Shown here: positions 2,881 through 50,526 of the stretch, in pieces
Position numbering within the stretch: the first letter of the stretch is position 1
Layout: each line of letters starts with the position of its first letter
Source of the DNA: Candidatus Gastranaerophilales bacterium
Lineage (GTDB): Bacteria; Cyanobacteriota; Vampirovibrionia; Gastranaerophilales; Gastranaerophilaceae
Assembly (NCBI GenBank): GCA_910587375.1
Contig: CAJULR010000022.1
Location: forward strand, 8,431 to 72,430
Length of the DNA stretch: 64,000 nt
Reading direction: 5' to 3'
Made by a program: the position numbers and the translations under genes
The notes under the pieces: generated by a model
Told to the model about the DNA's origin: nothing
The model's database searches: none
The model's input: the letters and a program-made list of their open reading frames with translations, nothing else

Positions 2881-3250
2881 AAAGAAAGTCGGAGGATAAT
2901 CGCGCGAGGGTTTAAACCTTTGTGAGGAAAGTCCGGACATCCAAAAAGGCGTGTTGCCTGGGAAAGCCAGGTGCGTGTGAGCGTGAGGACAGTGCCACAG
3001 AAAAGAAGAATGCCCTTCTTTTAAAGGAAGCCTTAGAAGGTTTTCTATATGAAGCTTGGGTGATTGTGCAACGGCGGAGTAAGAGCCCACCGCCTCTTCC
3101 CGTAAGGGCAGAGGGCAAGGTAAACCCCAACAGGATGCAAGTTCGGCTTTGCGGCTATGGTGCCTTTTCCTCCCTTTGGGGCCGCATAAAGGAACGCATT
3201 AGACAGATGATTATCTTGAAACAGAATCCGGCTTATTACCGGCTTTCTTT
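2881..3250 (+). ncRNA. rnpB: RNase P RNA, bacterial type A
   Basis: Conserved blocks are present: GAGGAAAGTCCGGAC, GAGTAAGAGCCCACC, GGTAAACCCCAAC and ACAGAATCCGGCTTAT. A P1 helix forms between aaagaaagtcgg (2881-2892) and ccggctttcttt (3239-3250). The overlapping track ORFs are spurious. Confidence 0.85.
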
Positions 3251-3306
3251 TTATGCGTGCAAAATGTCCGGTTTTCCACAGGGTCTATATGCTGTTTATA
3301 AGGAAA

Positions 3307-3588
3307 TCATTTGTTCAAATCCAGGACACAGCGCACACCAAAGGCGTTGGTAGAAGAATTGCTATTAACCGTGAAACTGCCACTATTCAAGTTGCCTCTG
3401 TAATAACTAGTGCCGCTGTTAAGCGTGCCTGACCATACGTTGTTCGGGTAGCAGTTGTTATTGGTCGCGCCCGTGCAGCCGCTGGTACGGTTCTGGCACT
3501 GCAAGGCGCCGTAACCTGAATTGTTGTCGCAGAGCTGCAAACAAAACGTGGTGCAGTGGGACAACAGGAGTGGAACCAACTTTGTCAT
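3307..3588 (-). CDS. small Cys-rich protein with DUF1566/Lcl-C-terminal-like ending (...AFGVRCVLD); possible gene fragment
   Basis: 93-codon ORF with a hydrophobic N-terminus, 8 Cys and Asn/Ser/Gly-rich content. The C-terminal xFGVRCV motif resembles DUF1566-type domains. An in-frame stop lies 12 codons upstream, inside repeat DNA. Confidence 0.4.
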   Translation of the reverse strand: MTKLVPLLLSHCTTFCLQLCDNNSGYGALQCQNRTSGCTGATNNNCYPNNVWSGTLNSGTSYYRGNLNSGSFTVNSNSSTNAFGVRCVLDLNK

Positions 3589-3656
3589 CCTGAATACAAG
3601 CGCGTCATCCTGAACACAAATGCGTCATCCTGAACTTGTTTCAGGATCTCAAGATT
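3584..3656 (+). repeat. three 20-nt-spaced gtcatcctgaa half-sites, the last completing hairpin repeat H1 (gtcatcctgaacttgtttcaggatctcaagatt)
   Basis: Half-sites start at 3584, 3604 and 3624. The H1 stem is atcctgaa/ttcaggat. The same 33-mer family recurs at 4116, 7066(-), 7820(-), 8194 and 26084. Confidence 0.85.
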
Positions 3657-3915: not shown

Positions 3916-3942
3916 GTAGGTTGGGCATACTTGCCCAACATC
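3916..3942 (+). repeat. hairpin repeat H2a (gtaggttgggcatacttgcccaacatc)
   Basis: Stem gttgggca/tgcccaac. A near-identical copy lies at 26004-26030 inside the 5' end of the 906-aa ORF. Confidence 0.8.
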
Positions 3943-4042: not shown

Positions 4043-4200
4043 CGTCATTGCGAGGGACCAACGGGAGTGCGGCAATCTAGAAACCAGTGTCGAAAAAGCC
4101 AATCAACATGCAGTCGTCATCCTGAACTTGTTTCAGGATCTCAAGATTAAGTAAAATTTTCCTGGATTGCTTCGTCGCTGTCGCAACGCTCGCAATGACG
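4043..4200. repeat. composite palindromic repeat: two inverted cgtcattgcgag...gcaatc(c/t)ag copies flanking an H1 hairpin (4116-4148)
   Basis: Copy A (4043-4085, +) and copy B (4161-4200, -) are mutually inverted. A third copy lies at 8289-8334 (-). Confidence 0.8.
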
Positions 4201-4240: not shown

Positions 4241-7204
4241 CTACATAGACGTGCTCTTATATTCAATTATGACAACCCCGTCGCCGCCATAGCCGCCAAG
4301 TCCGCCCACCCCGTCAACAACAGCGCCGCCTCCGCCGCCTCCGCCAAAGACTCCGGGCTTTCCTTGCGCTCCGCTTGCTGCTGCGTTACAATTTCCCGCA
4401 GCGCTCATGTTTCCGCCACAGCCGCCAAGTGGTGGCCCCGCAACTTTCCCGTCTTTGGATTTTATAAACGTCGCAAAGGTGTTGTCGATGTTTTGATAGA
4501 TATATTCCATATATCCGCCGATTCCGCCGCCGATTTCAGAGCCCGCATGCCCGTGCACGGCTGCTCCTTCGTCTGCAGCATAGTTATTATAGTTGTCAGG
4601 AAGCTTTTGAACCCCGCCATGGTCGTCTTTTGTAAGGCCGCTGTTGCCTTTAAGGCCGCCTTTTGCCTTTAAAAGCGTGCCAAAAGAGCTTTCGCCGCCC
4701 GCGCCGTCATAGGCTGTGCCGTTTGCCGCGGTTCCTGTTTTGCCGCCTTTGCCGATTGTGATTGGGATTTCGCTTCCCGGTTTTAAGTTATATAAAGTTG
4801 TAGATTTATATTCGCCGCTGGTGCCGCCCCCGCCGTTGCTGCCGCCATATTCAATGTAAATATAGCCGCTTGCACCTGCAGCGCCCATGCCAAAGGTGTC
4901 CCCTGTGGTTTGTGCGCCTGCTCCGCCGCCTCCGCCTGCGCCGTAGCTGTCGATTGCTGGTGTGGAGCCGTTTTTAACGCTGTTTCCGCCAGTTCCCCCT
5001 GAAACGCTTTCTGCTTTCATATTTTGGATGTTTCCGCCTGCGCCGCCAAAACCTTTGTTTGTAATTGCAGAGGCCAAAATGCCTTCGCCGCCTCCATATC
5101 CGCCTGTAAAGGTTTTGTTTAGCCAGTTTCCGCTTGCGTTTGCAACGTTATCCTGCATAATAAACACGCGTGTTCCAAGCCTTGCGCCGCCAGCAGAGGC
5201 CACATTCGGGTCTGAAGAGTATTGGCCTGCGTTTCCGCCAAGGGCTGTTGCAATGATTGTGCCTGTGGAAGAGCCGCGGCGGATGTAGGTTGCGCCGCCG
5301 TTGTTTCCGTTTTTGCCTGCGCTCACTTGGTTTGCGCCGCCTGCGCCCACTTCAAAATATAGGGTTTCGCCTGGGGTCACGGTGATTTCACCAATGGTCA
5401 TTTGGCCTGCGCCCCCGCCGCCCCCGCCATTTGCCGGCATATTATATGTGCATTTCAAGGCATTTGTCCTTGCCCCCGACTGCCCGTAACAAAGACGTAG
5501 CGCACCAGGCATGCCGTTGTTGGCCGCATTATTTGCATCTTTAGTGTTTTGTGTTCCATCGCCACCGTTACAATAATTGGCGCTTTTCCATATTGTAGTA
5601 GTACCTATAGTACCGGCAGTACTACTATTGCCAGATTTGCCTCCGTACCCTCCGCCTCCACCAACACCTGCAGATGTAGTACCTGTATTTCCGGTCAAAC
5701 CATTACCTATGCCTACAGTTGTATTTAAATATGTCCCACCTCCACCTCCAGCTCCAGCTCCACCTTTTCCACTTCCACCTGCTCCACCCCCTCCGCCATA
5801 TCCGCCCCCACCACCTCCGCCTCCTCCTGCACCGTAATATGTGCTTGAACTATAATGATAGCTTCCACCCCCACCCCCACCCCCACCAATTTGAAATATT
5901 ATAGTACCAGAGGTTCCTGAAGCAGTAGAAATTGATGTTGGGCCTCCGCCACCCCCACCCCCACCTGTTGCAAGACTTCCACTACCATTTGAATATGCAT
6001 TTCTTGCGCCCCCACCTCCGCCTCCACCCCATATTCCACCTCTTCCGCCACTTCCTGCATAACTGCTTGATATAGCATTACTACCTGTTCCCCCATACGA
6101 GATGGCAGTTCCAGTTCCATTTGAACCAGATGTTGCGTTTCCAGTAGAAGATTGCAGTCCTTGGCCACCATTACCTCCATATGTGCCTCCATTTCCACCG
6201 CTGTAGTTGCCACTCCAAGCTCCACCACCTCCACCTCCAGCACTATATCCACCTTCATTGCCACTGTGTTTACCTATTGCGCCCCCACCTCCACCTCCAG
6301 CAACTTTTATATAAACAGTTGATACAGATGAAGTTACTGATGCATTTGCTATATATCCACCTGAGCCTCCACCGCCACCATATGTATCGTACCCTGCACC
6401 ACCCCCACCCCCGCCGCCGCAGGCGGTGACTTTGAGTTCAGCTCCGGCTGTGGCTCCGGGGGTATATTTAACGCTTTCATCTGCCGTTAAGGTCCACTGT
6501 GTCACGCCTGAGGACTTACAGGCGCTGTCCAATTCGGGGACAATCCAGCTTGCATTGTTAGGAATTGTAAAGCTGTGTTCACCCGCGCTTAAAAAATCTT
6601 TACATGTTTCTGCAGCAGTTACCGAGGGAATATCTCCATAAGCTGTACCCACCCCAACGCCGCCGCTGGCGCCGCCTCCGCCGCCACCGACCATATAAAC
6701 GCGAAGTTTTGTAACGCCTTCCGGGACTTTCCAGCTTTGAACAGAGCTTGGGTTTTTAAATTCTAAAACGCCGTGGAATGCGTCCCCGCCTGCGCCTCCG
6801 CCGCCGAGCATGGTCACTTTGGCAGAGTTTACGTCAACCGGAACAAGAAAGGTTCCATCTTCGTTAAAAATCTGAATAACCGCGTCTTTATCGTATTGTG
6901 CGGCGCCAACGCCCGAAACATTGATTGTGGCTTCGTCCATGCGCTTTGTCATGACAGGCGCCAAGGCCGCCATGAGTAACGACGCCACCAATAGAGCCAT
7001 AAGCATTTCCACCAACGAAAACGCAGCATGGGATGATGTTGGGTTAAAACCCAACCTACGGGTTTGAGATTCTGAAACAAGTTCAGAATGACAAAGTCGG
7101 TCCCCGTTCGTTGGCCGAACAGTGTCCATTGGTTGAACGGCCGCAGTGCGGTTTAGAGCTGCAAAACTGCAGCTGTTTTTGAACAACTTTTTAAACATAA
7201 ACAA
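4241..7204 (-). CDS. giant glycine-rich protein with type IV prepilin-like N-terminal cleavage/methylation segment
   Basis: HAA|FSLVEMLMALLVASLLMAALAPVMTK matches the N_methyl-type motif (F-S-L-V-E plus a hydrophobic helix). The rest consists of stacked Gly-rich modules with runs of up to 9 Gly. Modules are bounded by beta-like strands (SWKVPEGVTKLRVYMVGGGGGG ... GYIYIEYGG ... GVVIIEYK). The true start is uncertain: TTG 7204, ATG 7198, or an internal TTG near 7050. Confidence 0.85.
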   Translation of the reverse strand: MFMFKKLFKNSCSFAALNRTAAVQPMDTVRPTNGDRLCHSELVSESQTRRLGFNPTSSHAAFSLVEMLMALLVASLLMAALAPVMTKRMDEATINVSGVGAAQYDKDAVIQIFNEDGTFLVPVDVNSAKVTMLGGGGAGGDAFHGVLEFKNPSSVQSWKVPEGVTKLRVYMVGGGGGGASGGVGVGTAYGDIPSVTAAETCKDFLSAGEHSFTIPNNASWIVPELDSACKSSGVTQWTLTADESVKYTPGATAGAELKVTACGGGGGGGAGYDTYGGGGGSGGYIANASVTSSVSTVYIKVAGGGGGGAIGKHSGNEGGYSAGGGGGGAWSGNYSGGNGGTYGGNGGQGLQSSTGNATSGSNGTGTAISYGGTGSNAISSSYAGSGGRGGIWGGGGGGGARNAYSNGSGSLATGGGGGGGGPTSISTASGTSGTIIFQIGGGGGGGGSYHYSSSTYYGAGGGGGGGGGYGGGGGAGGSGKGGAGAGGGGGTYLNTTVGIGNGLTGNTGTTSAGVGGGGGYGGKSGNSSTAGTIGTTTIWKSANYCNGGDGTQNTKDANNAANNGMPGALRLCYGQSGARTNALKCTYNMPANGGGGGGAGQMTIGEITVTPGETLYFEVGAGGANQVSAGKNGNNGGATYIRRGSSTGTIIATALGGNAGQYSSDPNVASAGGARLGTRVFIMQDNVANASGNWLNKTFTGGYGGGEGILASAITNKGFGGAGGNIQNMKAESVSGGTGGNSVKNGSTPAIDSYGAGGGGGAGAQTTGDTFGMGAAGASGYIYIEYGGSNGGGGTSGEYKSTTLYNLKPGSEIPITIGKGGKTGTAANGTAYDGAGGESSFGTLLKAKGGLKGNSGLTKDDHGGVQKLPDNYNNYAADEGAAVHGHAGSEIGGGIGGYMEYIYQNIDNTFATFIKSKDGKVAGPPLGGCGGNMSAAGNCNAAASGAQGKPGVFGGGGGGGAVVDGVGGLGGYGGDGVVIIEYKSTSM
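7038..7092 (-). repeat. hairpin repeats H2b (gtaggttgggttttaacccaac) and H1 variant (gtcattctgaacttgtttcagaatctc) inside the 5' part of the 987-aa ORF
   Basis: Reverse complement of 7038-7059 and of 7066-7092. The order and spacing relative to the FSLVEM codons match those in the 906-aa gene. Confidence 0.8.
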
Positions 7205-7398
7205 TTTCTCACTTTTTTAAAGTATTAACCGAAAATTTAATCTTTAGAACAACTTTTTAGTAAAATTTTCTACTACACAATATATTATAATAATGTTTAC
7301 ATTAAAAATCAATAAAAACTTGTTGTGTAGGTTATGAACACATGGCCTATTGCATAATAAGCTGTTGTTTGTATTGGGTTCAAGAAAAGTGGAATAAT

Positions 7399-7737
7399 AT
7401 GGACGAGAAAGAAATCAGGAAATTATTGGGCGAAAACATCAGAAGAATCCGCTGGAGTAAGAATATGACGCAGGAAGCGTTTTCAGAAAAAATCGGGATT
7501 GAGCCTTCAAGCCTTTCAAACATTGAAAACGGAAAGAGCCTGCCTTCAACACAAACAATTCTTAACATTCAGCAACAATTTGAAGTTTCTCCCAATGAAA
7601 TTTTTGATTTTGACATTGACTATGTTAAAAGCGCGCAAAACCTTGAAGATGAGATTTTTAGCACTGTTCGGGCCTTTGATGTAGACAGGAAGCGGGTTTT
7701 ATACAAAATTGTGAAGGCAATTGAAGTTACGGCGTAA
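7399..7737 (+). CDS. XRE-family helix-turn-helix transcriptional regulator
   Basis: MDEKEIRKLLGENIRRIRWSKNMTQEAFSEKIGIEPSSLSNIENGK is a classic Cro/CI-type HTH. An internal ATG at 7399 is preferred over the track start at 7342. The gene is divergent from the 987-aa gene. Confidence 0.8.
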   Translation: MDEKEIRKLLGENIRRIRWSKNMTQEAFSEKIGIEPSSLSNIENGKSLPSTQTILNIQQQFEVSPNEIFDFDIDYVKSAQNLEDEIFSTVRAFDVDRKRVLYKIVKAIEVTA

Positions 7738-7819: not shown

Positions 7820-7852
7820 AATCTTGAGATCCTGAATCAAGTTCAGGATGAC
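7820..7852 (-). repeat. hairpin repeat H1, inverted orientation
   Basis: aatcttgagatcctgaatcaagttcaggatgac is the reverse complement of the H1 consensus with one loop change. Confidence 0.8.
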
Positions 7853-8193: not shown

Positions 8194-8334
8194 GTCATCC
8201 TGAACTTGTTTCAGGATCTCGAGATTTTTGCGCTATATCAACAGACCCTGAAATAAATTCAGGGTGACAAAGTCTTTTCAGCGGCGTTGGTTTCTGGATT
8301 GCCGCGGTACGCTGTCGCTTCCCTCGCAATGACG
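8194..8334. repeat. repeat cluster: H1 (8194-8226,+), H1 variant (8245-8268,-), cgtcattgcgag-type copy C (8289-8334,-)
   Basis: Direct sequence matches to the copies at 3624, 4116 and 4043-4200. The overlapping track ORFs (8074-8256, 8195-8551) are built from these repeats. Confidence 0.8.
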
Positions 8335-20505: not shown

Positions 20506-21309
20506 ATGCAAGCGGAGAATTTTACCACAGATACCGTTGAAGAAGTCAATATGTGGCTTAAGGAATATAAAGAAACCGGGGACGAAGCGACAAAGAAAAA
20601 GCTCCGGGATTTAATTGTGCTTGCCTATATGCCGCTTGTAAAAAAGGTTGCGCGCGGTTTTGCAAGGCGCTCCACTGACCCTGTTGAAGATATTACACAA
20701 GTTGGCTCTATGGGCCTCATTAAGGCAATTGATTTGTTTAAATCAGATATAAGTTCAAACTTCAAAACCTATGCCACATATTTAATTACAGGGGAAATTA
20801 GGCACTATTTAAGGGATAAAACTACAATTATAAGGGCGCCAAGGGAAATTAAAGAATTGTCCTATCGTGTACACAAGTTAACGCTTGAATTAACAGAAAG
20901 GCTTGGCTGCCAGCCAACGGACGAACAAATTGCCCAGGCTTTGCAAATGCCCGCCAAAAAAATTGAAGAAGTAATAGAGCTTGAGCGCAGAACAACAACC
21001 GTTTCAATTGATCAAATTATAGGTTCGGAAGAAAACGGCCAGACGCCTTTAATGGATAAAATTGCGGATGAAAAAGATAAAAATCTTATAAACGCTTTTG
21101 AAAATAAAATGATTTTAGAGGACGCTATTAAAAAGCTTTCCTTGGAAGACAGACAAATTATCACCATGAATTTCTTTGAAGGATTAAATCAAAGGGAAAT
21201 TTCAGAACGCTTGAACATTTCTCAAATGCAGGTTTCAAGGAAATTGAAAAAATCTTTAAACAAACTTTTTGAACTCATCACCAAAAAAGGCGTAACACAT
21301 TATGATTGA
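20506..21309 (+). CDS. group-3 sigma-70 family factor (SigF/SigB-like)
   Basis: Region 2 (FKTYATYLITGEIRHYLRD) and region 4.2 (REISERLNISQMQVSRKLKKSL) are present. Size and motifs are typical of the SigB/F/G clade. Confidence 0.9.
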   Translation: MQAENFTTDTVEEVNMWLKEYKETGDEATKKKLRDLIVLAYMPLVKKVARGFARRSTDPVEDITQVGSMGLIKAIDLFKSDISSNFKTYATYLITGEIRHYLRDKTTIIRAPREIKELSYRVHKLTLELTERLGCQPTDEQIAQALQMPAKKIEEVIELERRTTTVSIDQIIGSEENGQTPLMDKIADEKDKNLINAFENKMILEDAIKKLSLEDRQIITMNFFEGLNQREISERLNISQMQVSRKLKKSLNKLFELITKKGVTHYD

Positions 21310-22291
21310 TTTAAATACGGTTTTAGCAATTTTTGTATTCATAACAGGTGCTTGTATTGGAAGTTTCTTAAATGTTGTGGCGCTTCGCGGGCTTTCTGGC
21401 GAAAGCATTGTTTTTCCGCCTTCAAAATGTCCAAAATGCAACAATAAATTAAATTGGTATACAAATATCCCGATTATTTCATATTGTTTTTTAAGGGGGA
21501 AATGCCAGTTTTGTAAAGAGCACATTTCGCTTCAATATCCTGTTGTTGAATTTTTGAATGCGCTTCTTTACCTTTTTTGCTTTTTATCCTTTGGCTGCAC
21601 GGCAAAAACGGTGTTTTTATGTATTTTAATATCGCTTTTTCTTGTAATTGCAATAACCGATTTCAAAGAAAGCGTTGTAATTGACGCTCATACATATGTT
21701 ATTATTGCTCTTGGGCTTATATATAATATTGTTCCTTTTGGTTGCCCTTTTGGCGAAGCAGGAATTGTTCAAAGTGTCCTCGGCATTCTTCTTGGGGCGA
21801 TTTTCTTTGAAGCTATAGCGCGAATTGGCTATCTTTTTGCCGGAACCCGTGCTTTTGGCGAAGGGGACACGTTAATTGCAATGGGTATTGGCGCATTTTT
21901 TGGTTGGAAAACCCTTCTTGTAATCATATTTATGAGCATTATTCTTCAAGCCGTTTTAACGCTTCCAATGCTTTTCCACAAGGCACTTAAAGAAAAACAG
22001 TATAAAAGTGCCGCTGCATACATTGTGCTTGTTTTTTGCGTTGGTTTAGTGTGGGCTTTCAGAGAATTTAATATATATAATATCTTTCCCCTGATTTTAA
22101 TTTTGCTTCTTATGGTCTGTGCTATGCTTCTTTGGGCGCTTTGCACGATTTTAGCTGATATGAAAAATAAAAAGGAAACAAACAATTTTCTATATCTCCC
22201 TTTTGGCCCGGCGCTTGTTCTTGCAGGCCTAATCACAGTGTTTTTCCAAAGCTCAATCATTGCATTTATAAAAAACATTTTCTTTTTGTAA
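21302..22291 (+). CDS. pilD: prepilin peptidase (A24 family, PilD-like)
   Basis: N-terminal CPKC...CQFC zinc motif. Two catalytic Asp contexts (ITDFKES, GEGDTLIAMGIG). Polytopic. The ATG overlaps the sigma factor stop (ATGATTGA). Confidence 0.9.
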   Translation: MIDLNTVLAIFVFITGACIGSFLNVVALRGLSGESIVFPPSKCPKCNNKLNWYTNIPIISYCFLRGKCQFCKEHISLQYPVVEFLNALLYLFCFLSFGCTAKTVFLCILISLFLVIAITDFKESVVIDAHTYVIIALGLIYNIVPFGCPFGEAGIVQSVLGILLGAIFFEAIARIGYLFAGTRAFGEGDTLIAMGIGAFFGWKTLLVIIFMSIILQAVLTLPMLFHKALKEKQYKSAAAYIVLVFCVGLVWAFREFNIYNIFPLILILLLMVCAMLLWALCTILADMKNKKETNNFLYLPFGPALVLAGLITVFFQSSIIAFIKNIFFL

Positions 22292-25638: not shown

Positions 25639-25854
25639 CTAATCAAATTTTAATCCTATTTTTGCATTGGCAATCTGTGCTATCAGGTTTGCTTCCTCAA
25701 ATCTCAAACTTTTACGGCGCACCCTTGCATATAAAGATTGCCTTGAATATTTTTTGCCGGTTTTTTGTGTCAATAATTCAGCAATTTGTGCATAAGTTAA
25801 ACCGGTTTGTGCCTGAATATGTTTGATAAATTGATTTGCGTCCATACCCTGCAT
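25639..25854 (-). CDS. small HTH DNA-binding protein (71 aa)
   Basis: TGLTYAQIAELLTQKTGKKYSRQSLYARV is HTH-like. It is the first gene of the three-gene minus-strand regulator array. Confidence 0.6.
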   Translation of the reverse strand: MQGMDANQFIKHIQAQTGLTYAQIAELLTQKTGKKYSRQSLYARVRRKSLRFEEANLIAQIANAKIGLKFD

Positions 25855-25984: not shown

Positions 25985-28705
25985 ATGCAAAACAAGCAAA
26001 TCTGTAAGTTGGGCATACTTGCCCAACATCATTCAATGACAGCTGCTCAATCAACGAAAAAAGCAATCAACCAACGTGCAACCGTCACCCTGAACTTGAT
26101 TCAGGGTCTCAACCAACGTGCACCCCGTAGGTTGGGTTTTAACCCAACACCACCCCATGCTGCTTTCTCTCTTGTGGAAATGCTCATGGCCCTTCTTGTG
26201 GCCTCCCTGCTGCTTGCGGCCCTTGCCCCCGTTATGACAAAGAAAATGTCCGAAAATATAAACGTTAACGGCATTTCAGGCGGCGGCCATGCCCCTGCTG
26301 TCTTTAAATGTTGGGACTACGACAGCCCGGAACTCCAGCCTGCGGCGGACGGCAGCAACTATAAAGTCCTCCCCGAAGCCTATCCTGTGGATGACGCCTG
26401 GAATATTAATTTCATCCTTGCTTCAGGCGGCGGCGGAGGCGCCGGTGCCACAATTCCAAACGAAACAAGCCACAGTTTTGACGGCACGGGCGAATTAAAA
26501 ATCGAGCCTGAAATGGATGAAATAGACATTGTTTCAATGATTGGAGGCGGCGCAGGGGGCGGAGGAGGCGCCGCAGTATTTAGCTCTGCCACTTGCACAG
26601 GCGGCCCGTCAGAGGCCAAATGCGAGTGTATGGGCGCAACATACGACTCTGTAAATAAAGTTTGCGTTTCAAATAATTTAGGTTCAAAAAACTTAACAAA
26701 TGCAAAAACAGCATGCCAAAATGTTACACCTCTTAACAAATGGAGTTTGCCAACAACAAGCCAGCTTTCAAACTGGAAGACTAATACGCTGTATTCAACC
26801 CTTGGAATTATAAGCGGGCAGACAGTTTGGAGCCAAACAAGCGGCCAAGGAGCATGCTCTAGTAGCACTTCGACCTATAATTGCTATTACAATGGTGCAT
26901 ATAGAACAGGCTATGCAAGTGAAACAGAATGTTGCAGTGGGAGTAGTTATGGTAGCAAGAAGGGAGCATATGAGCCCAACAATAATTCTTGTGGTGTGTA
27001 TTGCGCTGCAAGAAATGTAACATCTTCCCCTGGAAGTGGCTGGTTTAAAGGCGATGGCCAAACTGCAACAAAATGCGGAGGAACGGGAGGATGTAATTGG
27101 GGTAGTACGGATTATTTTAAATGTGGAACCTGTCCTGATTCTGACACCTGTGCTTCCACTGTTACAACTTCTTGTTCTTCATATTATACAAACTACTACT
27201 TCTACCAACTCACAGGTTCGACCTGGTCCCAAAGTTATGCAACAGATAACACAGGCTCCAGACAGACTTATTGCGTATATAATGACTCCGCAAATGTCAC
27301 AGGTGAAAGCTTCTACTCCCTATCAGGCGGCGGAGGAGGTGGTGCGCCCGCAATTTCAGACAATAATTTCGATTCAAACATTTTAAATACATTTAGAAAA
27401 AGAGTTAAGGAAAACGCCGGCGGCTACCTTGAATTTCAGCGCGGCACAGGCGGAAACGGCGGCGACGCAAGTGCTTCTAAAAACCAAAAAGCAGGAAACG
27501 GCGCAGACGGCGGAGATACCTGTATTATCGTGAAAAACGCGGCACGCGCGTATAAATATAAACTTTGCGTTTCGGGCGGAAACGGCGGCGGGGGCGCAAA
27601 CGCCACCAAAGCAGATTCTTCAACCACAGGCTGGGGCTATGCAGGAGGCGAAAAGAATAACGCAAATGCTTGCTATGTCGTGGATTACACGGCAAATTCC
27701 GCAGGCGTGAAGACAGATTTTGACTGTGCATTAAAAGGAAAAGCCGGAGGGGCAGGCGGCGCCTCAACAAGCAACCCGACAGCGGGCGGAAAAGGCGCTG
27801 CAAGCGTATTAAACAGCACACAAGTTGGCGGAACTGCAGTAAAAGACGGGGTTAGCGCCTCAACTTCAAACTATGGCGCAGGCGGAGGCGGCGGCTCTGC
27901 CTCGAAAACAGGCTATGGCTCTTCAGCAACTCTTGCTTTTGGCAAGGGCGGAAACGGCGCGCCGGGGTATATCAAAATAAACTATAAGAAAAAATTCGCA
28001 GCAGCAGGCGGCGGAGGCGGAGGCGGAGGCTATGTTGCCCATATAAATAATATTACGGTCGGAAAAACCGCAACCTGTGAAATCAAAGTGGGATACGGCG
28101 GGGCAGGAGGCGCTGCCGGGATAAAAGGCTATGACGGCGGAGATTCAAGCGTCACTTGCTCAAATGCGCCAAATGTTACCTACAGAATTACGGGCGGAAA
28201 AGGCGGAGAATTAGGCAGCACAACAGCCGGCGGCCTTGGCGGAGAGGCAGGCACCTATGATGACACAGGGAACATCTTCACAAGGCTTTTCAGCCAGGGA
28301 AATTTCAGACAGGCTGCGGGCCTTGCCGGAAAACAAGGCGGGGCGGGCGATTCCGCAAACTTTAAGGCAAACGTTCGAAGCGCAGGCGGCAGAGGCGGCA
28401 CGGGCGGAACCGGCGAAAAGGGCAAATGCGGCGGTATTTATACAGAAAGCGGCGTTTGCGCCACAGTGCAGGCGGATGAGAATAACGACATAACCGAACC
28501 AAACCAGGACGCCTTGAACGGCGAGGGTTTTGGGGCAGGAGAAATTACAGCGCCCACAAAGGATGGCATAGTTGAGGCCACGCCAAAATACGGAAAAGCA
28601 GGCGCTGGCGGGGGCGGAGGGGCCTGGTATGTAGGCAAAAACCCTGGCCGCGGGGGTGCCGGCCAAGGCGGATATGTCTGCATTTATTGGGACAAGCTGG
28701 AGTAG
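25985..28705 (+). CDS. giant glycine-rich protein with type IV prepilin-like N-terminal segment and a central Cys-rich DUF1566-like insert
   Basis: HAA|FSLVEMLMALLVASLLLAALAPVMTK is nearly identical to the 987-aa protein. Gly-rich modules end in GYIKINYKK and GYVCIYWDK. The central part holds about 18 Cys and a KWSLPTTSQLSNW motif. The true start is uncertain (ATG 25985 with an AAGGA site upstream, or TTG 26132). Confidence 0.85.
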   Translation: MQNKQICKLGILAQHHSMTAAQSTKKAINQRATVTLNLIQGLNQRAPRRLGFNPTPPHAAFSLVEMLMALLVASLLLAALAPVMTKKMSENINVNGISGGGHAPAVFKCWDYDSPELQPAADGSNYKVLPEAYPVDDAWNINFILASGGGGGAGATIPNETSHSFDGTGELKIEPEMDEIDIVSMIGGGAGGGGGAAVFSSATCTGGPSEAKCECMGATYDSVNKVCVSNNLGSKNLTNAKTACQNVTPLNKWSLPTTSQLSNWKTNTLYSTLGIISGQTVWSQTSGQGACSSSTSTYNCYYNGAYRTGYASETECCSGSSYGSKKGAYEPNNNSCGVYCAARNVTSSPGSGWFKGDGQTATKCGGTGGCNWGSTDYFKCGTCPDSDTCASTVTTSCSSYYTNYYFYQLTGSTWSQSYATDNTGSRQTYCVYNDSANVTGESFYSLSGGGGGGAPAISDNNFDSNILNTFRKRVKENAGGYLEFQRGTGGNGGDASASKNQKAGNGADGGDTCIIVKNAARAYKYKLCVSGGNGGGGANATKADSSTTGWGYAGGEKNNANACYVVDYTANSAGVKTDFDCALKGKAGGAGGASTSNPTAGGKGAASVLNSTQVGGTAVKDGVSASTSNYGAGGGGGSASKTGYGSSATLAFGKGGNGAPGYIKINYKKKFAAAGGGGGGGGYVAHINNITVGKTATCEIKVGYGGAGGAAGIKGYDGGDSSVTCSNAPNVTYRITGGKGGELGSTTAGGLGGEAGTYDDTGNIFTRLFSQGNFRQAAGLAGKQGGAGDSANFKANVRSAGGRGGTGGTGEKGKCGGIYTESGVCATVQADENNDITEPNQDALNGEGFGAGEITAPTKDGIVEATPKYGKAGAGGGGGAWYVGKNPGRGGAGQGGYVCIYWDKLE
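26004..26148 (+). repeat. hairpin repeats H2a (26004-26030), H1 variant (26084-26110) and H2b (26127-26148) inside the annotated 5' end of the 906-aa ORF
   Basis: Direct matches to intergenic copies at 3916, 3624/4116/8194 and 45205. Confidence 0.85.
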
Positions 28706-34099: not shown

Positions 34100-36901
34100 A
34101 TGAAAGTTAACGGTTCATTTAAAGGTATAAATCCTTCTGATAATAATTCTGCAAAAAAGCGCATAACAAAAGCCGCAATCCTTACAGGAGTTGTGGTTGG
34201 TGGCGCTGCATTGTATGGCAGGGGGAAGAAAAGCCCTGCTTTTCAAAAATTTGCAAGCACTTTAGCCAGTGATATTTTAACTCCCCTGAAACAAAAGGGG
34301 GTGCCTTTTAATGAAAAAATTGCAAATATTGGTGCAAATTTAAAACAATCCATTGGCGTTTTCACATCAAAAAGAAACAGATATGACGATATTATCGATA
34401 TCAGGCCGGGAAGGCAGCTTCCAGCGCTTCCTGAAAGGTCTTCTGCAAGTTATGTTGATAGCGCTTTAAGAAATCTGATTTATAAAGATAACGGGCAAAT
34501 TATTTTTGACATTCCCATAATTCCGGACGCAAACATTCCGCAGCAGAGCGGAAAAATTCTCGCACTTTCTGCCCCCGGAAACAGGCTTGCACTTCCTGAA
34601 AAAGCAGGAGGCGCGGCAGGCAATGTTGTGGAAAAAATACATTATAAGACTGTGCTGCCTGCGACTCCGCGTGTTATTGAGCTGCCGGGTGAAATTGCAG
34701 AAACCGCAGCAACCGTTGGCGAAGGGGTTACAGGAGCTTCAGAAAAAGCTGGTGGAAAATTTGCTGCAGCGGCAGGTGCAAGTGCAATTTTAGCAGGCGG
34801 TGTTGCGGCCTCAAAATTAAATAATGATGAAGAACCCAAGGTTCCTGCAAAAGACGTTAAACCCAAGGGAGCCAAAGAAACGAAAGGGCCTGCAAAAACA
34901 GCCGGGGCGCCAAAATCTGACAAAGTTCAGACGGTGACATTAAACGGTAAAGAATTTGGCGGCATTTTTGAAGACGGTATTGCATACGATGAAGAATGTG
35001 AACCCTTGACAGGAAGCCTTGTTGCAGGTTTTAAATCCGGCAAGACCGTTGTGCTTCAATATGAAGATGGTGTTTTGCAAAAATCTCTTATCTTTAAAGG
35101 TAAAGACGATGAAGCACCAAAAGAAATTAAAACTTATAAAAACGGAAAAATACATCAAAAATTCGAAGGCATAACTTTTGAAGATGGTGTATATGTTGCA
35201 AAAACAACTTCAACTTACCGTGCAAATGATTCTATGCTTCAAAGCAGGGAAGTTAAAGGCAAAAAGACCGTCCGCACAAAACACTTTAAAAACAGTTTGG
35301 ATGAAAACGGTAAAATAAACGGTAAACCCATTCCTGTAATGACTACAAGCGTTAGTCACTCAAATAATGGTACTGAAGTAAGAAAGTTCTATGCAATTAC
35401 AGGAGATGACACAGAAAGGCTTGCAAGAATAAGTGAAGCAAGGCCGGACGGCACAAAAGAAATTAAGCTTGTGGGCAATGGCGGAAATCCTGTAAGCACG
35501 ATGATTTTAAATAATGACAGACAAATTAATTGGTATATAACAGACCCTGACAGCCCGAATGATTCATACATATACATTAATAACGGCAAGGTGGCCGATG
35601 TAACAACAAGTATGAAATTTAATGACAAAGAACAGCTTATGGAATATGTCGGCTATACATATGCCGGGTCTGAAACTACGCCCCTAAAGCCTCTAGAAGA
35701 AGGGGAAACAAAATATAATGTACCTCATAAAACAACTACGCGTTATAAATCAAAAGAAGGTGAAATGTTTGTTATAACAACAGTTGTTAACAATGGACAT
35801 GAATACGTTACAAAGATTGAAGGATTTGAAAACGAAAAAGATACAGAACCTAAGAGCACCAGAATATATTCTGAAAATGATAAGATTGTGGCGGATTATT
35901 CTGAACATACATCCCCAATAACAGGTGAATTGCGAACCAAGCTGTCTATATGCAAGGGCGGAAAAGCGATGTCTTTCCCAACGCTTGAAAAGCTTGAATG
36001 TGCCGACGATTCTATTGAAGCCTACAGAAAGGCAGACGGTTCTGTTGTTGAAATTGAAAAAGACGAAGATGGTTATATAGTGTCAATTGCAACCTATGCT
36101 AATGAAGAAATTGACTATCCTGAATGTATTACAATTTTTGACCATGGCATGCCTGTAAAAGACGCAATATTTGATGTTGACGGCAATGTAGTTTTTAAAT
36201 CAAAATACAGCATAAAACCCGTTCCAAAGCAAGAAGTGGTGCAAGAAGCGCCGAAAATATTGACAAAAGAAGAGTCTATAAGACAGCCCGGCGGTTTTAA
36301 ATTTGACAATGATACGTATAATTCAATAACGTTCTATGAAAACATGTGGACCGGAAAATACTATCAGCCTGCAGACGTTAAGCGAATTGAAAGAGATAAA
36401 GAAGACGCGTATCGCATAACTCTTCTAAATCCGTATTCATATAACACGCCTGCATATAATATGCTTTTGGACCAAAATAATACAATTCAGCTTCTTAGCG
36501 TATATTCAAGCGGTAATACGGTTGAACTATTCTTGGATGAAGAAGGGCGTCTTGATGTTGATGATTTAAAATATGCCATTAAAGAAGGCGAACTTAAACA
36601 TGTCGGGCCTTTCAAGAAAAACATCGAAAGATATCAAATGGAAAAGGGCGAAGTTATTGAATTTGTAAAACGTGAAGACGGAACTGTTGCCTCTATTGCT
36701 TATTATGAAGATGAAACAAGTGATACTCCTGTTTGCAGAACCTTTGTAAAAGGTGGTGTTCCAACAACAGATGTTGTATATAATTTAGAAGATGGAAGCT
36801 ATGTTTATAATGAATCTTCACTAAGTGGTTTAGATATGCTTGAAAACCCGATTGAAGATATTTATATAAACAACATATTTGGCGGCCCGGAGAGAAAATA
36901 A
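34100..36901 (+). CDS. large orphan membrane-anchored repeat protein (933 aa)
   Basis: Two hydrophobic segments (AAILTGVVVGGAALYG; AAAAGASAILAGGVAAS) and a Lys/Pro-rich linker. These are followed by MORN/YwqK-like turns (YEDGVLQKSLIF, YKNGKIHQKF) and two related C-terminal modules (VEIEKDEDGYIVSIATYANEEIDYPEC... / VIEFVKREDGTVASIAYYEDETSDTPVC...). Confidence 0.7.
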   Translation: MKVNGSFKGINPSDNNSAKKRITKAAILTGVVVGGAALYGRGKKSPAFQKFASTLASDILTPLKQKGVPFNEKIANIGANLKQSIGVFTSKRNRYDDIIDIRPGRQLPALPERSSASYVDSALRNLIYKDNGQIIFDIPIIPDANIPQQSGKILALSAPGNRLALPEKAGGAAGNVVEKIHYKTVLPATPRVIELPGEIAETAATVGEGVTGASEKAGGKFAAAAGASAILAGGVAASKLNNDEEPKVPAKDVKPKGAKETKGPAKTAGAPKSDKVQTVTLNGKEFGGIFEDGIAYDEECEPLTGSLVAGFKSGKTVVLQYEDGVLQKSLIFKGKDDEAPKEIKTYKNGKIHQKFEGITFEDGVYVAKTTSTYRANDSMLQSREVKGKKTVRTKHFKNSLDENGKINGKPIPVMTTSVSHSNNGTEVRKFYAITGDDTERLARISEARPDGTKEIKLVGNGGNPVSTMILNNDRQINWYITDPDSPNDSYIYINNGKVADVTTSMKFNDKEQLMEYVGYTYAGSETTPLKPLEEGETKYNVPHKTTTRYKSKEGEMFVITTVVNNGHEYVTKIEGFENEKDTEPKSTRIYSENDKIVADYSEHTSPITGELRTKLSICKGGKAMSFPTLEKLECADDSIEAYRKADGSVVEIEKDEDGYIVSIATYANEEIDYPECITIFDHGMPVKDAIFDVDGNVVFKSKYSIKPVPKQEVVQEAPKILTKEESIRQPGGFKFDNDTYNSITFYENMWTGKYYQPADVKRIERDKEDAYRITLLNPYSYNTPAYNMLLDQNNTIQLLSVYSSGNTVELFLDEEGRLDVDDLKYAIKEGELKHVGPFKKNIERYQMEKGEVIEFVKREDGTVASIAYYEDETSDTPVCRTFVKGGVPTTDVVYNLEDGSYVYNESSLSGLDMLENPIEDIYINNIFGGPERK

Positions 36902-45201: not shown

Positions 45202-45204
45202 CTC

Positions 45205-45226
45205 GTAGGTTGGGTTTTAACCCAAC
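45205..45226 (+). repeat. hairpin repeat H2b (gtaggttgggttttaacccaac), intergenic copy
   Basis: Identical to 26127-26148 and to the reverse complement of 7038-7059. It sits between convergent genes. Confidence 0.85.
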
Positions 45227-47785: not shown

Positions 47786-49429
47786 CTAGCACACATGCTG
47801 AATTCCAAGCCTTTCTGCCACGTTTTTATCCACTGTTACAAGCGCGTCAGACCTTCCGACTGGCAAGCTGGAGTTTCCGATAGGCGCCATAAGCTTTTTC
47901 AGCTCTGTGTGGGTTGCAAGGAAATAATTTACAATGTTTTGCGCAACTTTATCCACATCAAGCCTTTTCATTAATATTGGGTGCTGTGTTGTAAGCCCTG
48001 CGGGGCAAAGGCCCGTATTGCAAGCGTTACATTTCCCCCAATCATTTCCGAGGCACCCTGCAATTTGAAGCATTAAACGGCCCGTAAATACGCCGTTTGC
48101 GCCAAGGCATATCATCTTAAACGCGTCTGCTGCAAGGTTTCCGTTCATTCCTAAACCTCCTGCGGCCCAAAGCGGTATCTGTCCTTGTTTTCCCTGGTGT
48201 ACAGCTGCGTTGTAGCAGTCGCGAAGTCTGGAAACTATCGGATGGCCTGTATGGTCTAATGATGTTTCGTGTGCAGCGCCCGTGCCGCCTGCAATACCGT
48301 CTAAGAAGAAGCCGCCAACGATGTCATACGGGTCACGAAGCAGGTTGTTATATACTGAAACAGATGTAACAGAGGCTGCAACCTTAATTGCCACGGGCAC
48401 TTTAAATTTAAACGCCGCATTCATTGAAAGGAACATTTTTTGAACAGATTCTTCAATTGAATAAAGTCCCTGATGATTAGGCGGAGAGAGCAAATCAGAC
48501 TTTGGAACCCCTCTGATTTCCTGGATGTGTTTTTCAACCTTCTTAGAAAGCAAAAGCCCGCCGTCGCCTGGTTTTGCGCCCTGTCCGATTTTAATCAAAA
48601 TCCCCGCAGGGTCTTCTATCATATCAGGCATTGAATTTATAATTCTGTTCCAGCCAAAATGTCCTGAGGCTATCTGTAAAATCATATATTTCAAGTATTT
48701 TGACTTCAAAAGTTTCTCCGGAACTCCGCCTTCCCCTGTGCACATGCGGATTGGCAGGTTATGAACTTCGTTTAAATAAGCAACAGCAATGCAAATCGCT
48801 TCCCAAAGCCTTGGAGATAGCGCGCCTATTGACATATCGCCTATAATAATAGGGTAAATCCAGCGTGTAGTCGGGATTTTCTTATCGATTTTTAAATTTC
48901 CCGTTTCATCTACGCTAAAAGGCAGGTTTTCAGGCGGAAGCACACGCCCGAAAGGCGCCAAGAGTTCGAAAGTGTGACGTAGAGCGTCTAAAGACGGGTC
49001 TGTCATTTGTGAAATTCTTCCGATTTTAATTTTATCAAGGGTTCTGCCTTCAGTGTGAAGGTTTGTCCTGCCGCCTCTTTTGGGGGATTCAGCGTTTAGG
49101 GCTCTGTATTTTACATTTACTCTGTTTTTGTCGTTAAACACAGGTTTTATCGCTTCATTCGGGCAAACTTTTGCGCAAAGTTCGCACCCTACGCAGTTTT
49201 TAGAGTTCGTTACAATCTGTTTTATAACAGGAACAATAGTTTCAGACACTTGGGGGGTTGGGAAATCTCCTGAAGATGTCACTTTTCTTCTTTTTTGAAC
49301 ATCGGCCTTAATTGCTCCCATTGTGCATACGGCAAGGCATTTGCCACAAAGGGTGCATTTATCCTGATTGTGCTCAATCTGCCATTTTAGGTCAGACTTT
49401 GAAATGCCTGTTATATCTACTGTTTCCAT
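47786..49429 (-). CDS. glutamate synthase FMN-binding (GltB domain 2-like) subunit with N-terminal 2x[4Fe-4S] ferredoxin domain
   Basis: CTLCGKCLAVC and CVGCELCAKVCP clusters, followed by a TIM-barrel glutamate synthase region (GEGG, QGAKPGDGG, GGTGAA). Confidence 0.9.
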   Translation of the reverse strand: METVDITGISKSDLKWQIEHNQDKCTLCGKCLAVCTMGAIKADVQKRRKVTSSGDFPTPQVSETIVPVIKQIVTNSKNCVGCELCAKVCPNEAIKPVFNDKNRVNVKYRALNAESPKRGGRTNLHTEGRTLDKIKIGRISQMTDPSLDALRHTFELLAPFGRVLPPENLPFSVDETGNLKIDKKIPTTRWIYPIIIGDMSIGALSPRLWEAICIAVAYLNEVHNLPIRMCTGEGGVPEKLLKSKYLKYMILQIASGHFGWNRIINSMPDMIEDPAGILIKIGQGAKPGDGGLLLSKKVEKHIQEIRGVPKSDLLSPPNHQGLYSIEESVQKMFLSMNAAFKFKVPVAIKVAASVTSVSVYNNLLRDPYDIVGGFFLDGIAGGTGAAHETSLDHTGHPIVSRLRDCYNAAVHQGKQGQIPLWAAGGLGMNGNLAADAFKMICLGANGVFTGRLMLQIAGCLGNDWGKCNACNTGLCPAGLTTQHPILMKRLDVDKVAQNIVNYFLATHTELKKLMAPIGNSSLPVGRSDALVTVDKNVAERLGIQHVC

Positions 49430-50526
49430 CTTTCAATCCTTAAATTGTTATCAATAATAACGGTTTCTCTTTCGTTCGGGTAAATGTCACTTGCAGCGTC
49501 CCTGTTCGGTAAAACTTCGTTTATGCCGCAAACTTCACTTGTTACGATTACGGTTTTTTCGTCCCTTCCGATTACAACCGGGCGAAGCTTTTTAGAATCG
49601 CAGGTGACTAACATTGTGCCATCCGGAGCCACGCCTATGATTGTGTTTGGGCCGTTTATCTCTAAATGTGCCAAAGAAGCCTTGATTCTGAGCAAAATTT
49701 CTCTGTCTTCCCTTCTTAATATTTCTTCATATTCGAGGGGTGTAATTACGTGTTTAAAATATTTCAAGGGCCATTTTAAAATTTTATTTACATAATGCAG
49801 CGTATACAAAAAGCACTGAGAATCAGACTCAAAGCCTATATAGCCTTTAAATAAATTTTTCTGAAAGAGCTTATTCTTTTCATAGAAAGTGTTTTCGCCA
49901 TTTGCAAGCACCGTATATCCCTGTAAAAAGAACGGGTGAGCGGCATAGCGGACAATGTCATAATTTGTATTTTGGCGACATTGAACGGTTATAATTTTTG
50001 AAACAAAATCGCTGTTTTCCTTGTCCAGGTTGAAATATGTGCCAATGTCTTTCGGGTTTCCAATTTCTTTTAACATCAAAGTATCAGGCCAAAATGAGTA
50101 TACATAGCCATTATCGCCATCTTCAAGAGCTTCTCTTAATTTTAGCCTTGTTTCAAGCAAAAGCTCCTCTTTTTCCTCTGCTGTAGCGTATTTATACATT
50201 TTCGGGTAGTTAAAAACCTCAAAAACATAGTTTGGCATAGGGCAAATATTCAGGTTTTTCGCGGTTTTGTTAATGTCCGGGGTCCACTGCATAAGCCTTA
50301 CAAACCCTGCCTGGTGCAGAATATCCTCTGCAATCCTTATTCCCATATCGGTGCATGCCATTGAAAGAACCGGCAAATCCTTGTAGGGCTCGAATATTCC
50401 GCCTAAATCCTGCATTACAAAAGCAAAGCCCGAATTATCATGGCCTTTTTGCTGAGAGCGCATAAGTTCAAGGGTTTTCGCCGGATGGAAATATTCGCTC
50501 GATTTAATTGCCCCGATACGGCACAT
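49417..50526 (-). CDS. class II (Ntn) glutamine amidotransferase subunit of split glutamate synthase
   Basis: MCRIGA places a Cys directly after the initiator Met, which is the Ntn nucleophile. The gene overlaps the downstream FMN-subunit gene by 13 nt. Confidence 0.85.
   Translation of the reverse strand: MCRIGAIKSSEYFHPAKTLELMRSQQKGHDNSGFAFVMQDLGGIFEPYKDLPVLSMACTDMGIRIAEDILHQAGFVRLMQWTPDINKTAKNLNICPMPNYVFEVFNYPKMYKYATAEEKEELLLETRLKLREALEDGDNGYVYSFWPDTLMLKEIGNPKDIGTYFNLDKENSDFVSKIITVQCRQNTNYDIVRYAAHPFFLQGYTVLANGENTFYEKNKLFQKNLFKGYIGFESDSQCFLYTLHYVNKILKWPLKYFKHVITPLEYEEILRREDREILLRIKASLAHLEINGPNTIIGVAPDGTMLVTCDSKKLRPVVIGRDEKTVIVTSEVCGINEVLPNRDAASDIYPNERETVIIDNNLRIERWKQ

Follow-up and report, generated by a model that had tools for sequence, protein, structure and literature searches.

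Modular pilins comprise more than 1200 proteins with 264 different architectures, among them an example of 860 amino acids (Raynaud et al. 2021, PMC8179133). Described representatives are PilB (vWA) and PilC (lectin) of Streptococcus sanguinis, CofB of enterotoxigenic Escherichia coli (ETEC), ComZ of Thermus and GspK of the type II secretion system (T2SS) (PMC8179133). In Sulfolobus solfataricus, sugar-binding proteins with class III signal peptides make up the bindosome (PMC3047682). For their display, both a peptidase of the prepilin type and an assembly system of the type IV filament kind are needed, and the filament itself was never seen (PMC3047682, PMC4471445). For the fibre protein gp24 of cyanophage Pam3, a TNF-like sandwich was described, the strands of which continue into a four-layer lattice of glycine-rich motifs (PMC9608196). 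Its distal tips are hypervariable and were proposed as receptor-binding sites, and the domain was reported to be similar to gp38 of Salmonella phage S16 and to ALK of C. elegans (PMC9608196). The present analysis deals with a gene for a 985-amino acid glycine-rich protein with a prepilin-type N-terminus, located in a stretch of 64,000 nucleotides of contig CAJULR010000022.1 of a Candidatus Gastranaerophilales bacterium, which is referred to as the window.

The product of this gene is a cell-envelope protein of an uncultured gut relative of the cyanobacteria and belongs to an undescribed family. The explanation which we propose, and to which we give an even chance of being correct, is that of a 'headless' modular type IV pilin-like protein for variable surface binding, which would be processed by PilD and carried by type IV filament machinery. 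Display of the 985-residue protein on a pilus is something that we only infer. The gene and the parts of its product are located as follows:

4241 to 7198, minus strand: gene for the 985-amino acid glycine-rich prepilin-type protein (open reading frame (ORF) list, public gene calls)
7022 to 7198, minus strand: leader peptide of 59 amino acids, probably cytoplasmic and removed, with two translated hairpins of the repetitive extragenic palindromic (REP) type (frame statistics)
6944 to 7021, minus strand: mature N-terminus with the alpha1N helix FSLVEMLMALLVASLLMAALAPVMTK, including Glu5 and Pro22 (conservation, AlphaFold2 helix 62-78)
6890 to 6943, minus strand: flexible linker, residues 86-103 (predicted local distance difference test score (pLDDT) <50 for residues 78-103)
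5477 to 6889, minus strand: super-module I, residues 104-574, an expanded Gly_rich_2 module (36.9 bits on residues 104-330)
4838 to 5476, minus strand: Gly_rich_2 module II, residues 575-787 (43.6 bits for the piece 566-787)
4244 to 4837, minus strand: Gly_rich_2 module III, residues 788-985 (43.8 bits)

The stop codon of the gene occupies positions 4241-4243 on the minus strand. Two start codons are available, a TTG at 7204 resulting in 987 amino acids and an ATG at 7198 resulting in 985 amino acids. The ATG has a GTGAGA-type ribosome-binding site (RBS) 8-10 nt upstream and is also the start used in the public gene calls. An earlier note on this DNA, made from the sequence alone, had reported a glycine-rich ORF with a prepilin-type N-terminus and Ala at -1 at 4241..7204 of the minus strand, and the ORF is present as described. 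Glycine accounts for 27% of the residues and forms 17 runs of at least 4 residues. The runs of up to 9 Gly and the recurring strand motifs named in that note (WKVPEGVTKLRVYMVGGGGGG, TVYIKVAGGGGGG, ITVTPGETLYFEVGAGG, GYIYIEYGG and GVVIIEYK) were all recovered, and they lie in conserved columns of the family alignment. The local GC content at the gene is 53% compared to ~35% in the surrounding genome, because of the GGN codons and of GC-rich repeat elements. An identical 985-amino acid protein is encoded on 14 public contigs (e.g., GCA_949052505.1). Internal stop codons are absent, and at the 79 loci of the family all genes that are not cut by a contig end are full ORFs with 764-981 mature residues. 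This confirms that the ORF is due neither to chance nor to decay and is an intact, real gene.

The putative cleavage junction reads ...SSHAA/FSLVEMLMALLVASLLMAALAPVMTK (the slash marks the cut), with Ala at -1, Phe at +1, Glu at +5 and Pro at +22. A cut by PilD is predicted between Ala59 and Phe60. F60 and E64 are invariant, and the segment FSLVEMLMALLVASLLMAALAP with Pro at +22 combines Phe at +1, Glu at +5 and a hydrophobic alpha1N, as expected for a signal of this type. From Phe+1 onward the sequence FSLVEMLMALLVASLL[LM]AALAPVMT[KR] is near-invariant in 120 homologues and 89 distinct genomic copies, and Glu5 and Pro22 are invariant in the family alignment. Glu5 is dispensable for cleavage and needed for assembly into filaments, as reviewed by Berry and Pelicic (PMC4471445). 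Column conservation in the alignment amounts to 97% for the helix, compared to 31-84% elsewhere. Within the first 27 mature codons of the two paralogues in the window, 24 of 81 nucleotides differ and only 2 of 27 amino acids, and therefore selection on the protein, not gene conversion, accounts for the conservation. A conservation of 97% appears to be far more than a plain membrane anchor would need.

Position -1 is occupied by Ala in 79 and by Gly in the remaining 10 of the 89 genomic copies. The leaders in front of it vary freely in content and length, ranging from 5 to ~185 amino acids as called. Short leaders are basic and prepilin-like (MAQCA/, MQKNTA/, MRNKNSIRA/, MDKKKYHIAA/). The change from a variable leader to an invariant mature part is sharp and lies exactly at -1/+1, where -1 is either Ala or Gly, and this indicates a processing site. 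Distant subfamilies from the exhaustive search have canonical signals (MKKTA/FTLAELLTAVLVISVIMVALAPVITK, MKFKHG/FTLAELL..., KPG/FSLVELLISL...), which precede the same linker and first glycine-rich module as in the main family. On this comparative evidence, a class III (prepilin-type) signal with Ala at -1 is strongly backed.

Translation of the leader is shown by frame statistics for the 89 family genes. Its frame remains open over a median of 38 codons upstream of Phe+1, compared to 8 and 11 codons in the control frames, and an in-frame leader ATG is present in 89 of 89 genes, compared to 10 and 20 of 89 in the control frames. A downstream start at a conserved TTG at -11, resulting in the leader MGFNPTSSHAA, has no RBS spacing, as GTAGG abuts the TTG. 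This candidate was rejected because both paralogues in the window have a good site before the far ATG, and it is further disfavored because the frame statistics favor long translated leaders.

Part of the leader coding region consists of repeat elements, which together with a similar element downstream of the gene have the following positions:

7066 to 7092, minus strand: REP-like hairpin GTCATTCTGAACTTGTTTCAGAATCTC within the part of the gene that codes for the leader (7 copies in the window)
7038 to 7060, minus strand: hairpin element of a second type, CGTAGGTTGGGTTTTAACCCAAC, also within the leader, where it is translated as RRLGFNPT (3 exact copies)
3920 to 3939, minus strand: terminator-like GC hairpin GTTGGGCA...TGCCCAAC, followed by a T-run, ~300 nt past the stop codon

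The hairpin GTCAYYCTGAAYTTNTTTCAGRRTCTC occurs 7 times in the window (3624-3650, 4116-4142, 7066-7092, 7826-7852, 8194-8220, 8242-8268 and 26084-26110), whereas 0 copies are expected. The copies cluster around the glycine-rich genes, and one lies inside the leader of each of the two paralogues in the window. These two leader copies differ by compensatory changes in the stem (TT/AA vs. CC/GG). The three exact copies of CGTAGGTTGGGTTTTAACCCAAC are located at 7038-7060, 26126-26148 and 45204-45226. A third hairpin type, GTTGGGCA-N4-TGCCCAAC, is found at 3920-3939 and, within the leader of the paralogue, at 26008-26027. Translation of the elements leaves peptide signatures such as CHSELVSES and VTLNLIQGL in the leaders, and in-frame signatures were identified in 16 of the 89 family leaders. 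In an Rfam scan of the window only the RNase P RNA was detected, and none of the curated families is matched by the hairpin repeats at the gathering threshold. A cytoplasmic peptide that is discarded would be a natural neutral landing site for REP elements, and the insertions can be read as indirect support for processing.

The protein structure was predicted using AlphaFold2 with the family alignment of 86 sequences, resulting in a mean pLDDT of 84.2 and a predicted template modeling score (pTM) of 0.52. Residues 1-61 and 78-103 have a pLDDT <50, and the region from ~104 to 985 is predicted with confidence. The sole N-terminal helix of at least 4 residues comprises residues 62-78. According to the model, the protein is 'headless', being composed of signal, alpha1N, flexible linker and cargo, and it is structurally not a pilin. 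The cargo belongs to the Pfam family Gly_rich_2 (PF21722), which matches the whole protein with 67.1 bits in 4 stretches (cut-off 24.3 bits). The earlier note had assigned it to Gly_rich (PF12810), for which no match was obtained at E <=1, and this assignment has to be replaced. Super-module I has a Cys-containing insertion at ~181-258, contains the densest poly-Gly region (260-530) and ends in the module-end motif PGALRLCY. When separate pieces were scanned with Pfam, residues 300-565 alone gave no Gly_rich_2 match. In this region the mean pLDDT of 10-residue blocks is between 70 and 97, with almost no helix or strand according to DSSP. Of the 226 positions of the Gly_rich_2 profile, the piece 566-787 (module II) spans 33-225 and module III spans 36-226. 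Modeled alone (788-985, sub-alignment of 20 sequences), module III reached a pLDDT of 88 and a pTM of 0.82.

Using Foldseek, the full model was compared with the predicted viral structures of BFVD, resulting in 37 matches with E <=1e-3, the best of them with 3.3e-13. The matches comprise tail-fibre, minor-tail and baseplate proteins of phages as well as phage proteins labelled 'glycine-rich domain-containing'. Alignments of module size extend over 205-220 columns at a root-mean-square deviation of 4-6 Å and a template modeling score (TM) of up to 0.5. The list for the PDB is headed by the tail tip of mycobacteriophage Bxb1 (E 0.011) and the Pam3 fibre protein gp24 (E 0.02, probability 0.99-1.0, TM 0.36-0.40). 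Glycine-rich-domain chains of ALK/LTK follow at ranks 5-23 (19 chains, E 0.06-0.99, probability 0.10-0.47). The kinship with ALK/LTK that the earlier note had proposed stands in part: the stack of strand/poly-Gly modules and a related TNF-like plus glycine-rich fold were found, but the match to ALK/LTK itself is weak. In addition, residues 86-183 have a match (E 1.9e-10) to PHROG 863, which is in the category 'tail' and carries the description tail fibre assembly. A profile search of the PDB sequences with the family alignment yielded chance-level matches only (FlgD, E 0.03) and no ALK.

A second family member, which the earlier note had not pointed out, is encoded in the window:

25985 to 28705, plus strand: paralogue of 906 amino acids (18.5% Gly), which shares the helix and carries a Cys-rich insertion in its first module (translation)

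The paralogue is 31% identical to the 985-amino acid protein, and its scores for N_methyl (19.4 bits) and Gly_rich_2 (22.6 bits) are both just under the cut-offs. Its Cys-rich insertion of ~230 residues (~26580-27300), with 21 Cys between residues 204 and 430, replaces the short insertion in the first module of the 985-amino acid protein. No Pfam match was found for this insertion, which may be an extra binding domain.

A word-indexed search resulted in 270 homologues at E <=1e-3. All of the 120 homologues listed carry PF21722, and their length is between 837 and 1135 amino acids in 119 cases and 688 amino acids in one case. The only source name among the homologues is 'hypothetical protein [Candidatus Gastranaerophilales bacterium]', and members of distant subfamilies are unnamed, which agrees with the earlier view of an uncharacterized protein. 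The exhaustive search with a hidden Markov model (HMM) against 1.84 billion cluster representatives (50%-identity library) yielded 1362 representatives with E <=1e-3, of which 324 have E <=1e-10 and 112 E <=1e-30. In a genome scan, 321 stretches matched the helix patterns; 149 of them were relatives, and 79 loci were kept. About 12 metagenome-assembled genomes of mouse-gut Gastranaerophilales or 'Vampirovibrio' are covered, with at least 6-12 loci per well-assembled genome. In these related genomes, of which the earlier note had suggested a survey, the fusion of a prepilin-type helix with Gly_rich_2 recurs, the copies are intact and decay was not seen. Many of the loci lie at contig ends, which suggests that assemblies tend to break at family genes and that the counts of copies are too low. 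In some genomes, two family genes occur side by side, either in tandem (L014, L019, L020, L023 and L052) or as divergent pairs (L036 and L053).

Overall, the paralogues are 31-73% identical. Their variation is concentrated in loops and indels between the conserved Gly runs and strands of the family alignment. In 2.9 million viral contigs, 48 pattern matches and 0 relatives were found. In 889 kb of related loci, no small pilin with the invariant family helix, which could be a major subunit, was found. An ordinary pilin occurs only once in this DNA, at L050 ~11312 (minus strand; KG/FTLAELMIVLAVLAVIAAVLMP..., 109 amino acids mature), and it has Pro22 and a different alpha1N. The searchable literature contains no mention of PF21722/Gly_rich_2, of Melainabacteria together with glycine-rich, or of prepilin together with a glycine-rich domain.

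For the analysis of the genomic context, the regions upstream of the family genes and the remaining window were considered. The relevant features are:

7399 to 7737, plus strand: divergent XRE-family helix-turn-helix (HTH) regulator of 112 amino acids, ATG at 7399 (HTH_19 E 2.7e-14, HTH_3 E 2.9e-13)
7284 to 7312, minus strand: candidate sigma-70-like promoter TTGATT-17-TATAAT, with the ATG ~85 nt downstream (match to the consensus at 10 of 12 positions, best in the region)
7273 to 7330, no strand assigned: imperfect inverted repeat spanning the promoter, candidate operator (arms 7273-7291 and 7312-7330)
25639 to 25854, minus strand: small HTH-like gene (71 amino acids) divergent from the paralogue (upstream-divergent neighbour cluster, 5 loci)
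21302 to 22291, plus strand: prepilin peptidase of the PilD type, 329 amino acids, presumed processing enzyme (A24_N_bact E 2.9e-32, Peptidase_A24 E 1e-11)
2884 to 3251, plus strand: bacterial RNase P RNA class A, full length (190.5 bits; several spurious ORFs overlap)

Small divergent HTH genes, either homologous or analogous, are located directly upstream of at least 53 of 86 family genes. The Pfam matches of the 71-amino acid gene (HTH_33 and DUF6471) are weak and both below the cut-off. A distant member of the FTLAE type (848 amino acids; P0178 / L082 9546-12547) has the same divergent HTH_3 neighbour. From this arrangement, the unit appears to be a two-gene cassette composed of a regulator and a glycine-rich prepilin-type protein. 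The arms of the inverted repeat at 7273..7330 have a length of 19 nt each and are 74% complementary, and the repeat may act as operator.

The prepilin peptidase that had been noticed at 21302 is clearly identified by its Pfam matches. Its gene is overlapped by 8 nt by the 3' end of a gene for a SigF/SigB-type group-3 sigma factor (20506-21309, plus strand; TIGR02980 203 bits, below cut-off), and because of this overlap a co-transcription of both genes is suggested. In cyanobacteria, SigF controls pilin expression and motility. The genes pilA, pilB, pilC, pilT and pilD were reported in Gastranaerophilales (PMC5877343).

The family copies are dispersed among housekeeping genes. In the window, the 985-amino acid gene lies between TatD/RNase P RNA and a GGDEF protein, and the paralogue lies between EF-G and a glycosyltransferase. 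No machinery genes are conserved beside the family members, the only recurrent neighbours being the small HTH genes and an ORF with the motif F[GT]VRCVLDL. Small ORFs of the latter type were found at 6 loci including the window (e.g., L034 7997-8470), mostly downstream and on the same strand, and may represent a remnant or an accessory gene. Downstream of the 985-amino acid gene, an ORF of 93 amino acids (3307-3588, minus strand) ends with ...AFGVRCVLDLNK and has no Pfam match. An SLH-domain protein of 673 amino acids (57750-59771, plus strand, E 1e-23) is consistent with an envelope that is anchored to the cell wall through SLH domains. The contig of the FTLAE-type 848-amino acid member also carries FliJ and MlaE. 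Judging from the SLH-domain protein in the window and MlaE on the contig of the relative, the lineage looks diderm. Two further ORFs of the window, 34100-36901 (plus strand, 933 amino acids) and 49417-50526 (minus strand, 369 amino acids), have no Pfam or NCBIfam match.

The proposed headless pilin-like protein would function in the following way. The leader, which has a variable length in the family and 59 amino acids here, is translated and would stay in the cytoplasm. The PilD-type peptidase of the window would cut after Ala59 and probably N-methylate Phe60. In the mature protein of 926 amino acids, the near-invariant alpha1N of 22 residues would then serve as anchor in the inner membrane. 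It is followed by a flexible linker of ~20 residues and by three TNF-like/glycine-rich modules of the family Gly_rich_2, a kind of module that phages have at the distal tips of their tail fibres, where receptors are bound. The helix could serve as a universal adapter by which any of at least 10 paralogous heads is plugged into a pseudopilus or type IV filament, where the tip is the most plausible place, or into a short bindosome-like assembly. In the modules, the conserved Gly lattices would provide the scaffold, whose indel-rich loops might bind ligands on host mucus, food particles or other microbes. Each copy would be switched by its own small XRE/HTH regulator, which is encoded divergently and would act on the shared promoter region.

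A more far-reaching version of this proposal is rather unlikely in our estimation: the near-invariant alpha1N with Ala at -1 would mount any of at least 10 interchangeable phage-type receptor-binding heads on one and the same type IV filament, and every head would have an XRE-type repressor of its own as its gate. The bacteria would thereby obtain an adhesin repertoire of the combinatorial or one-at-a-time type, with the leader as neutral REP landing pad.

Several observations weigh against assembly into a type IV filament. The AlphaFold2 model contains neither an alpha1C helix nor the beta-sheet head of a pilin, and therefore the normal lateral contacts within a filament are missing. The reading as a prepilin holds with respect to the class III signal and the comparative evidence, but not with respect to the pilin fold. 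Neither an assembly ATPase nor a platform protein, secretin or minor pilin is encoded near either of the copies in the window. The scores for N_methyl (PF07963; 18.1 bits, cut-off 21.2) and TIGR02532 (15.6 bits, cut-off 16.3) are just below the thresholds. The earlier note had itself named a missing N_methyl match as a reason to give up its reading, and formally a significant match was not obtained. Among the 120 homologues listed, 5 have a precomputed PF07963 match (3 with Gly and 2 with Ala at -1). We judge the low score to be a threshold effect of the Ala at -1, since relatives with Gly at this position pass. Ala at -1 is probably tolerated by prepilin peptidases. It is nevertheless atypical, because Gly is the bacterial consensus and bacterial class III leaders were described as invariably ending in Gly, which is critical for cleavage (PMC4471445). 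Leaders of 59 to ~185 amino acids also far exceed the usual length of 6-26 amino acids. Among the 25 Foldseek matches in the PDB with E <=10, none reaches E <=1e-3, and for module III in isolation nothing meaningful was found in the PDB (E >3). The terminal strands are unformed in the model of the isolated module, and the cut probably split a sandwich or sheet which is shared with module II.

The lack of a pilin head domain and of filament machinery genes nearby, as well as the Ala at -1 with the sub-threshold N_methyl match, would also fit a protein that is anchored in the envelope and not borne by a filament. In this case the helix, either cleaved by PilD or kept as an uncleaved type II signal anchor, would tether the modules to the inner membrane, where they would either be exposed to the periplasm or build up a bindosome-like layer, and their role in the diderm envelope would be structural or one of binding. 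The sugar-binding proteins of the Sulfolobus bindosome, which are large non-pilin proteins of class III, provide a precedent (PMC3047682, PMC4471445). Moreover, in a lineage that looks diderm a cargo of 926 amino acids would need an outer-membrane channel to reach the surface. A mere tether, however, requires neither 97% identity nor invariant Glu5 and Pro22 across paralogues of 31-73% identity, the break exactly at -1/+1 points to a processing site, and modules of the phage receptor-binding type suggest exposure to the outside. As the bindosome itself uses a type IV filament-type assembly (PMC3047682), envelope anchoring grades into the filament-borne protein proposed above; taken by itself, we consider it possible, though on the unlikely side. 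A structural fibre or sheath of the cell surface, with mechanical glycine lattices and paralogues as coat isoforms instead of adhesins, is improbable. The scaffold with 27% Gly, which is confidently predicted and largely without regular secondary structure, would suit such a role, as would the many paralogues of uniform size (764-981 mature residues). On the other hand, it is rare for abundant structural proteins to have one private repressor-type regulator each, the domain is known from receptor-binding tips and not from shafts or coats, and variation in indel-bearing loops is the pattern of binding surfaces.

The domain family and the fold are typical of tail fibres and minor tail proteins, and a gene of the Cro/CI HTH type adjoins, which raises the question of a phage or prophage tail-fibre gene or its remnant. 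This origin was rejected, as the scan of 2.9 million viral contigs gave pattern matches but no relative, and it has only a very small probability: both copies in the window lie among housekeeping genes with no phage structural genes nearby, ~10 dispersed copies are present per genome, and the prepilin-type N-terminus is absent from phage fibres. The reading as a decaying pseudogene or as a low-complexity ORF artefact in a GC-rich repeat region could refer to the raised local GC content (53% vs. ~35%) and to the REP elements which flank the gene and invade its 5' end. It is effectively refuted by the intact, conserved ORFs and is hardly credible any more, given the identical ORF on 14 contigs, the family genes without internal stops, the conserved structural columns, the confidently predicted fold and the overwhelmingly synonymous changes in the helix.

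Gastranaerophilales are uncultured, non-photosynthetic relatives of the cyanobacteria in animal guts. To our knowledge, the ways in which they attach to their surroundings or sense them are almost unknown. The family appears to be the most obvious candidate for a variable surface-interaction repertoire in this lineage, because it is large, lineage-restricted and individually regulated and has modules that phages use for cell-surface recognition. For the biology of type IV filaments, it poses the question whether a headless subunit with alpha1N only can be extracted from the membrane and displayed, whether a bacterial prepilin peptidase is able to process Ala at -1 and leaders of at least 60 amino acids, and by which route a bulky cargo crosses the outer membrane. 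Structural biologists would gain an example of the rare polyglycine-lattice fold that is cellular and has several modules. If the helix were a universal plug for interchangeable heads, this would be the first case outside the metazoans in which a cell uses the TNF-like/polyglycine fold for receptor binding at the surface, and the first in which a pilin-like subunit is shown to assemble although it lacks a pilin head. It would also be a pilus-borne analogue of phage host-range cassettes and antigenic variation. If the protein were merely membrane-anchored, it would still represent a new bacterial counterpart of the archaeal bindosome principle.

Like the phage tail-fibre and minor-tail proteins (Pam3 gp24, S16 gp38, Bxb1 tail tip), which belong to the same Pfam family PF21722 and are the best structural matches, the family shows conserved stretches of the GGGGxGG type that would form the lattice, with variable loops in between. 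It differs in being cellular and not viral, in having three tandem modules per chain instead of one module ending a trimeric shaft, and in its N-terminal membrane/pilin-type helix in place of a baseplate-docking helix bundle. ALK/LTK (PF12810; PDB 7LRZ, 7MZY, 7NX1) have the general TNF-like plus polyglycine architecture in common with the family, but match only weakly; Pam3 gp24 is the better match, and ALK/LTK are more distant structural cousins.

Like the bindosome proteins, the 985-amino acid protein is a large functional non-pilin protein with a class III signal. The bindosome is archaeal, with a single membrane and an S-layer, and its cargo consists of binding proteins of ABC transporters. 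In addition, archaeal signals generally lack a conserved Glu5, a residue that is invariant in the glycine-rich family.

With the modular pilins, the family shares a class III signal and alpha1N followed by non-pilin functional modules joined by linkers. Modular pilins were proposed to be located at the filament tip and to bind ligands (PMC8179133). In contrast to them, the family has no pilin module, the cargo follows directly after alpha1N, and what might correspond to the 'pilin module' is reduced to the signal plus alpha1N. Further differences are the Ala at -1 (79 of 89), the leaders of 59 to ~185 amino acids with translated REP elements, the cargo of three Gly_rich_2 modules (926 amino acids mature) and the presence of at least ~10 paralogues per genome, each with a private HTH regulator. 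It is already known that modular pilins are extremely diverse, and both component domains are catalogued. New are the headless design, Ala at -1 as the rule, the very long REP-invaded leaders, the three tandem glycine-rich modules and the lineage-specific expansion with private regulators.

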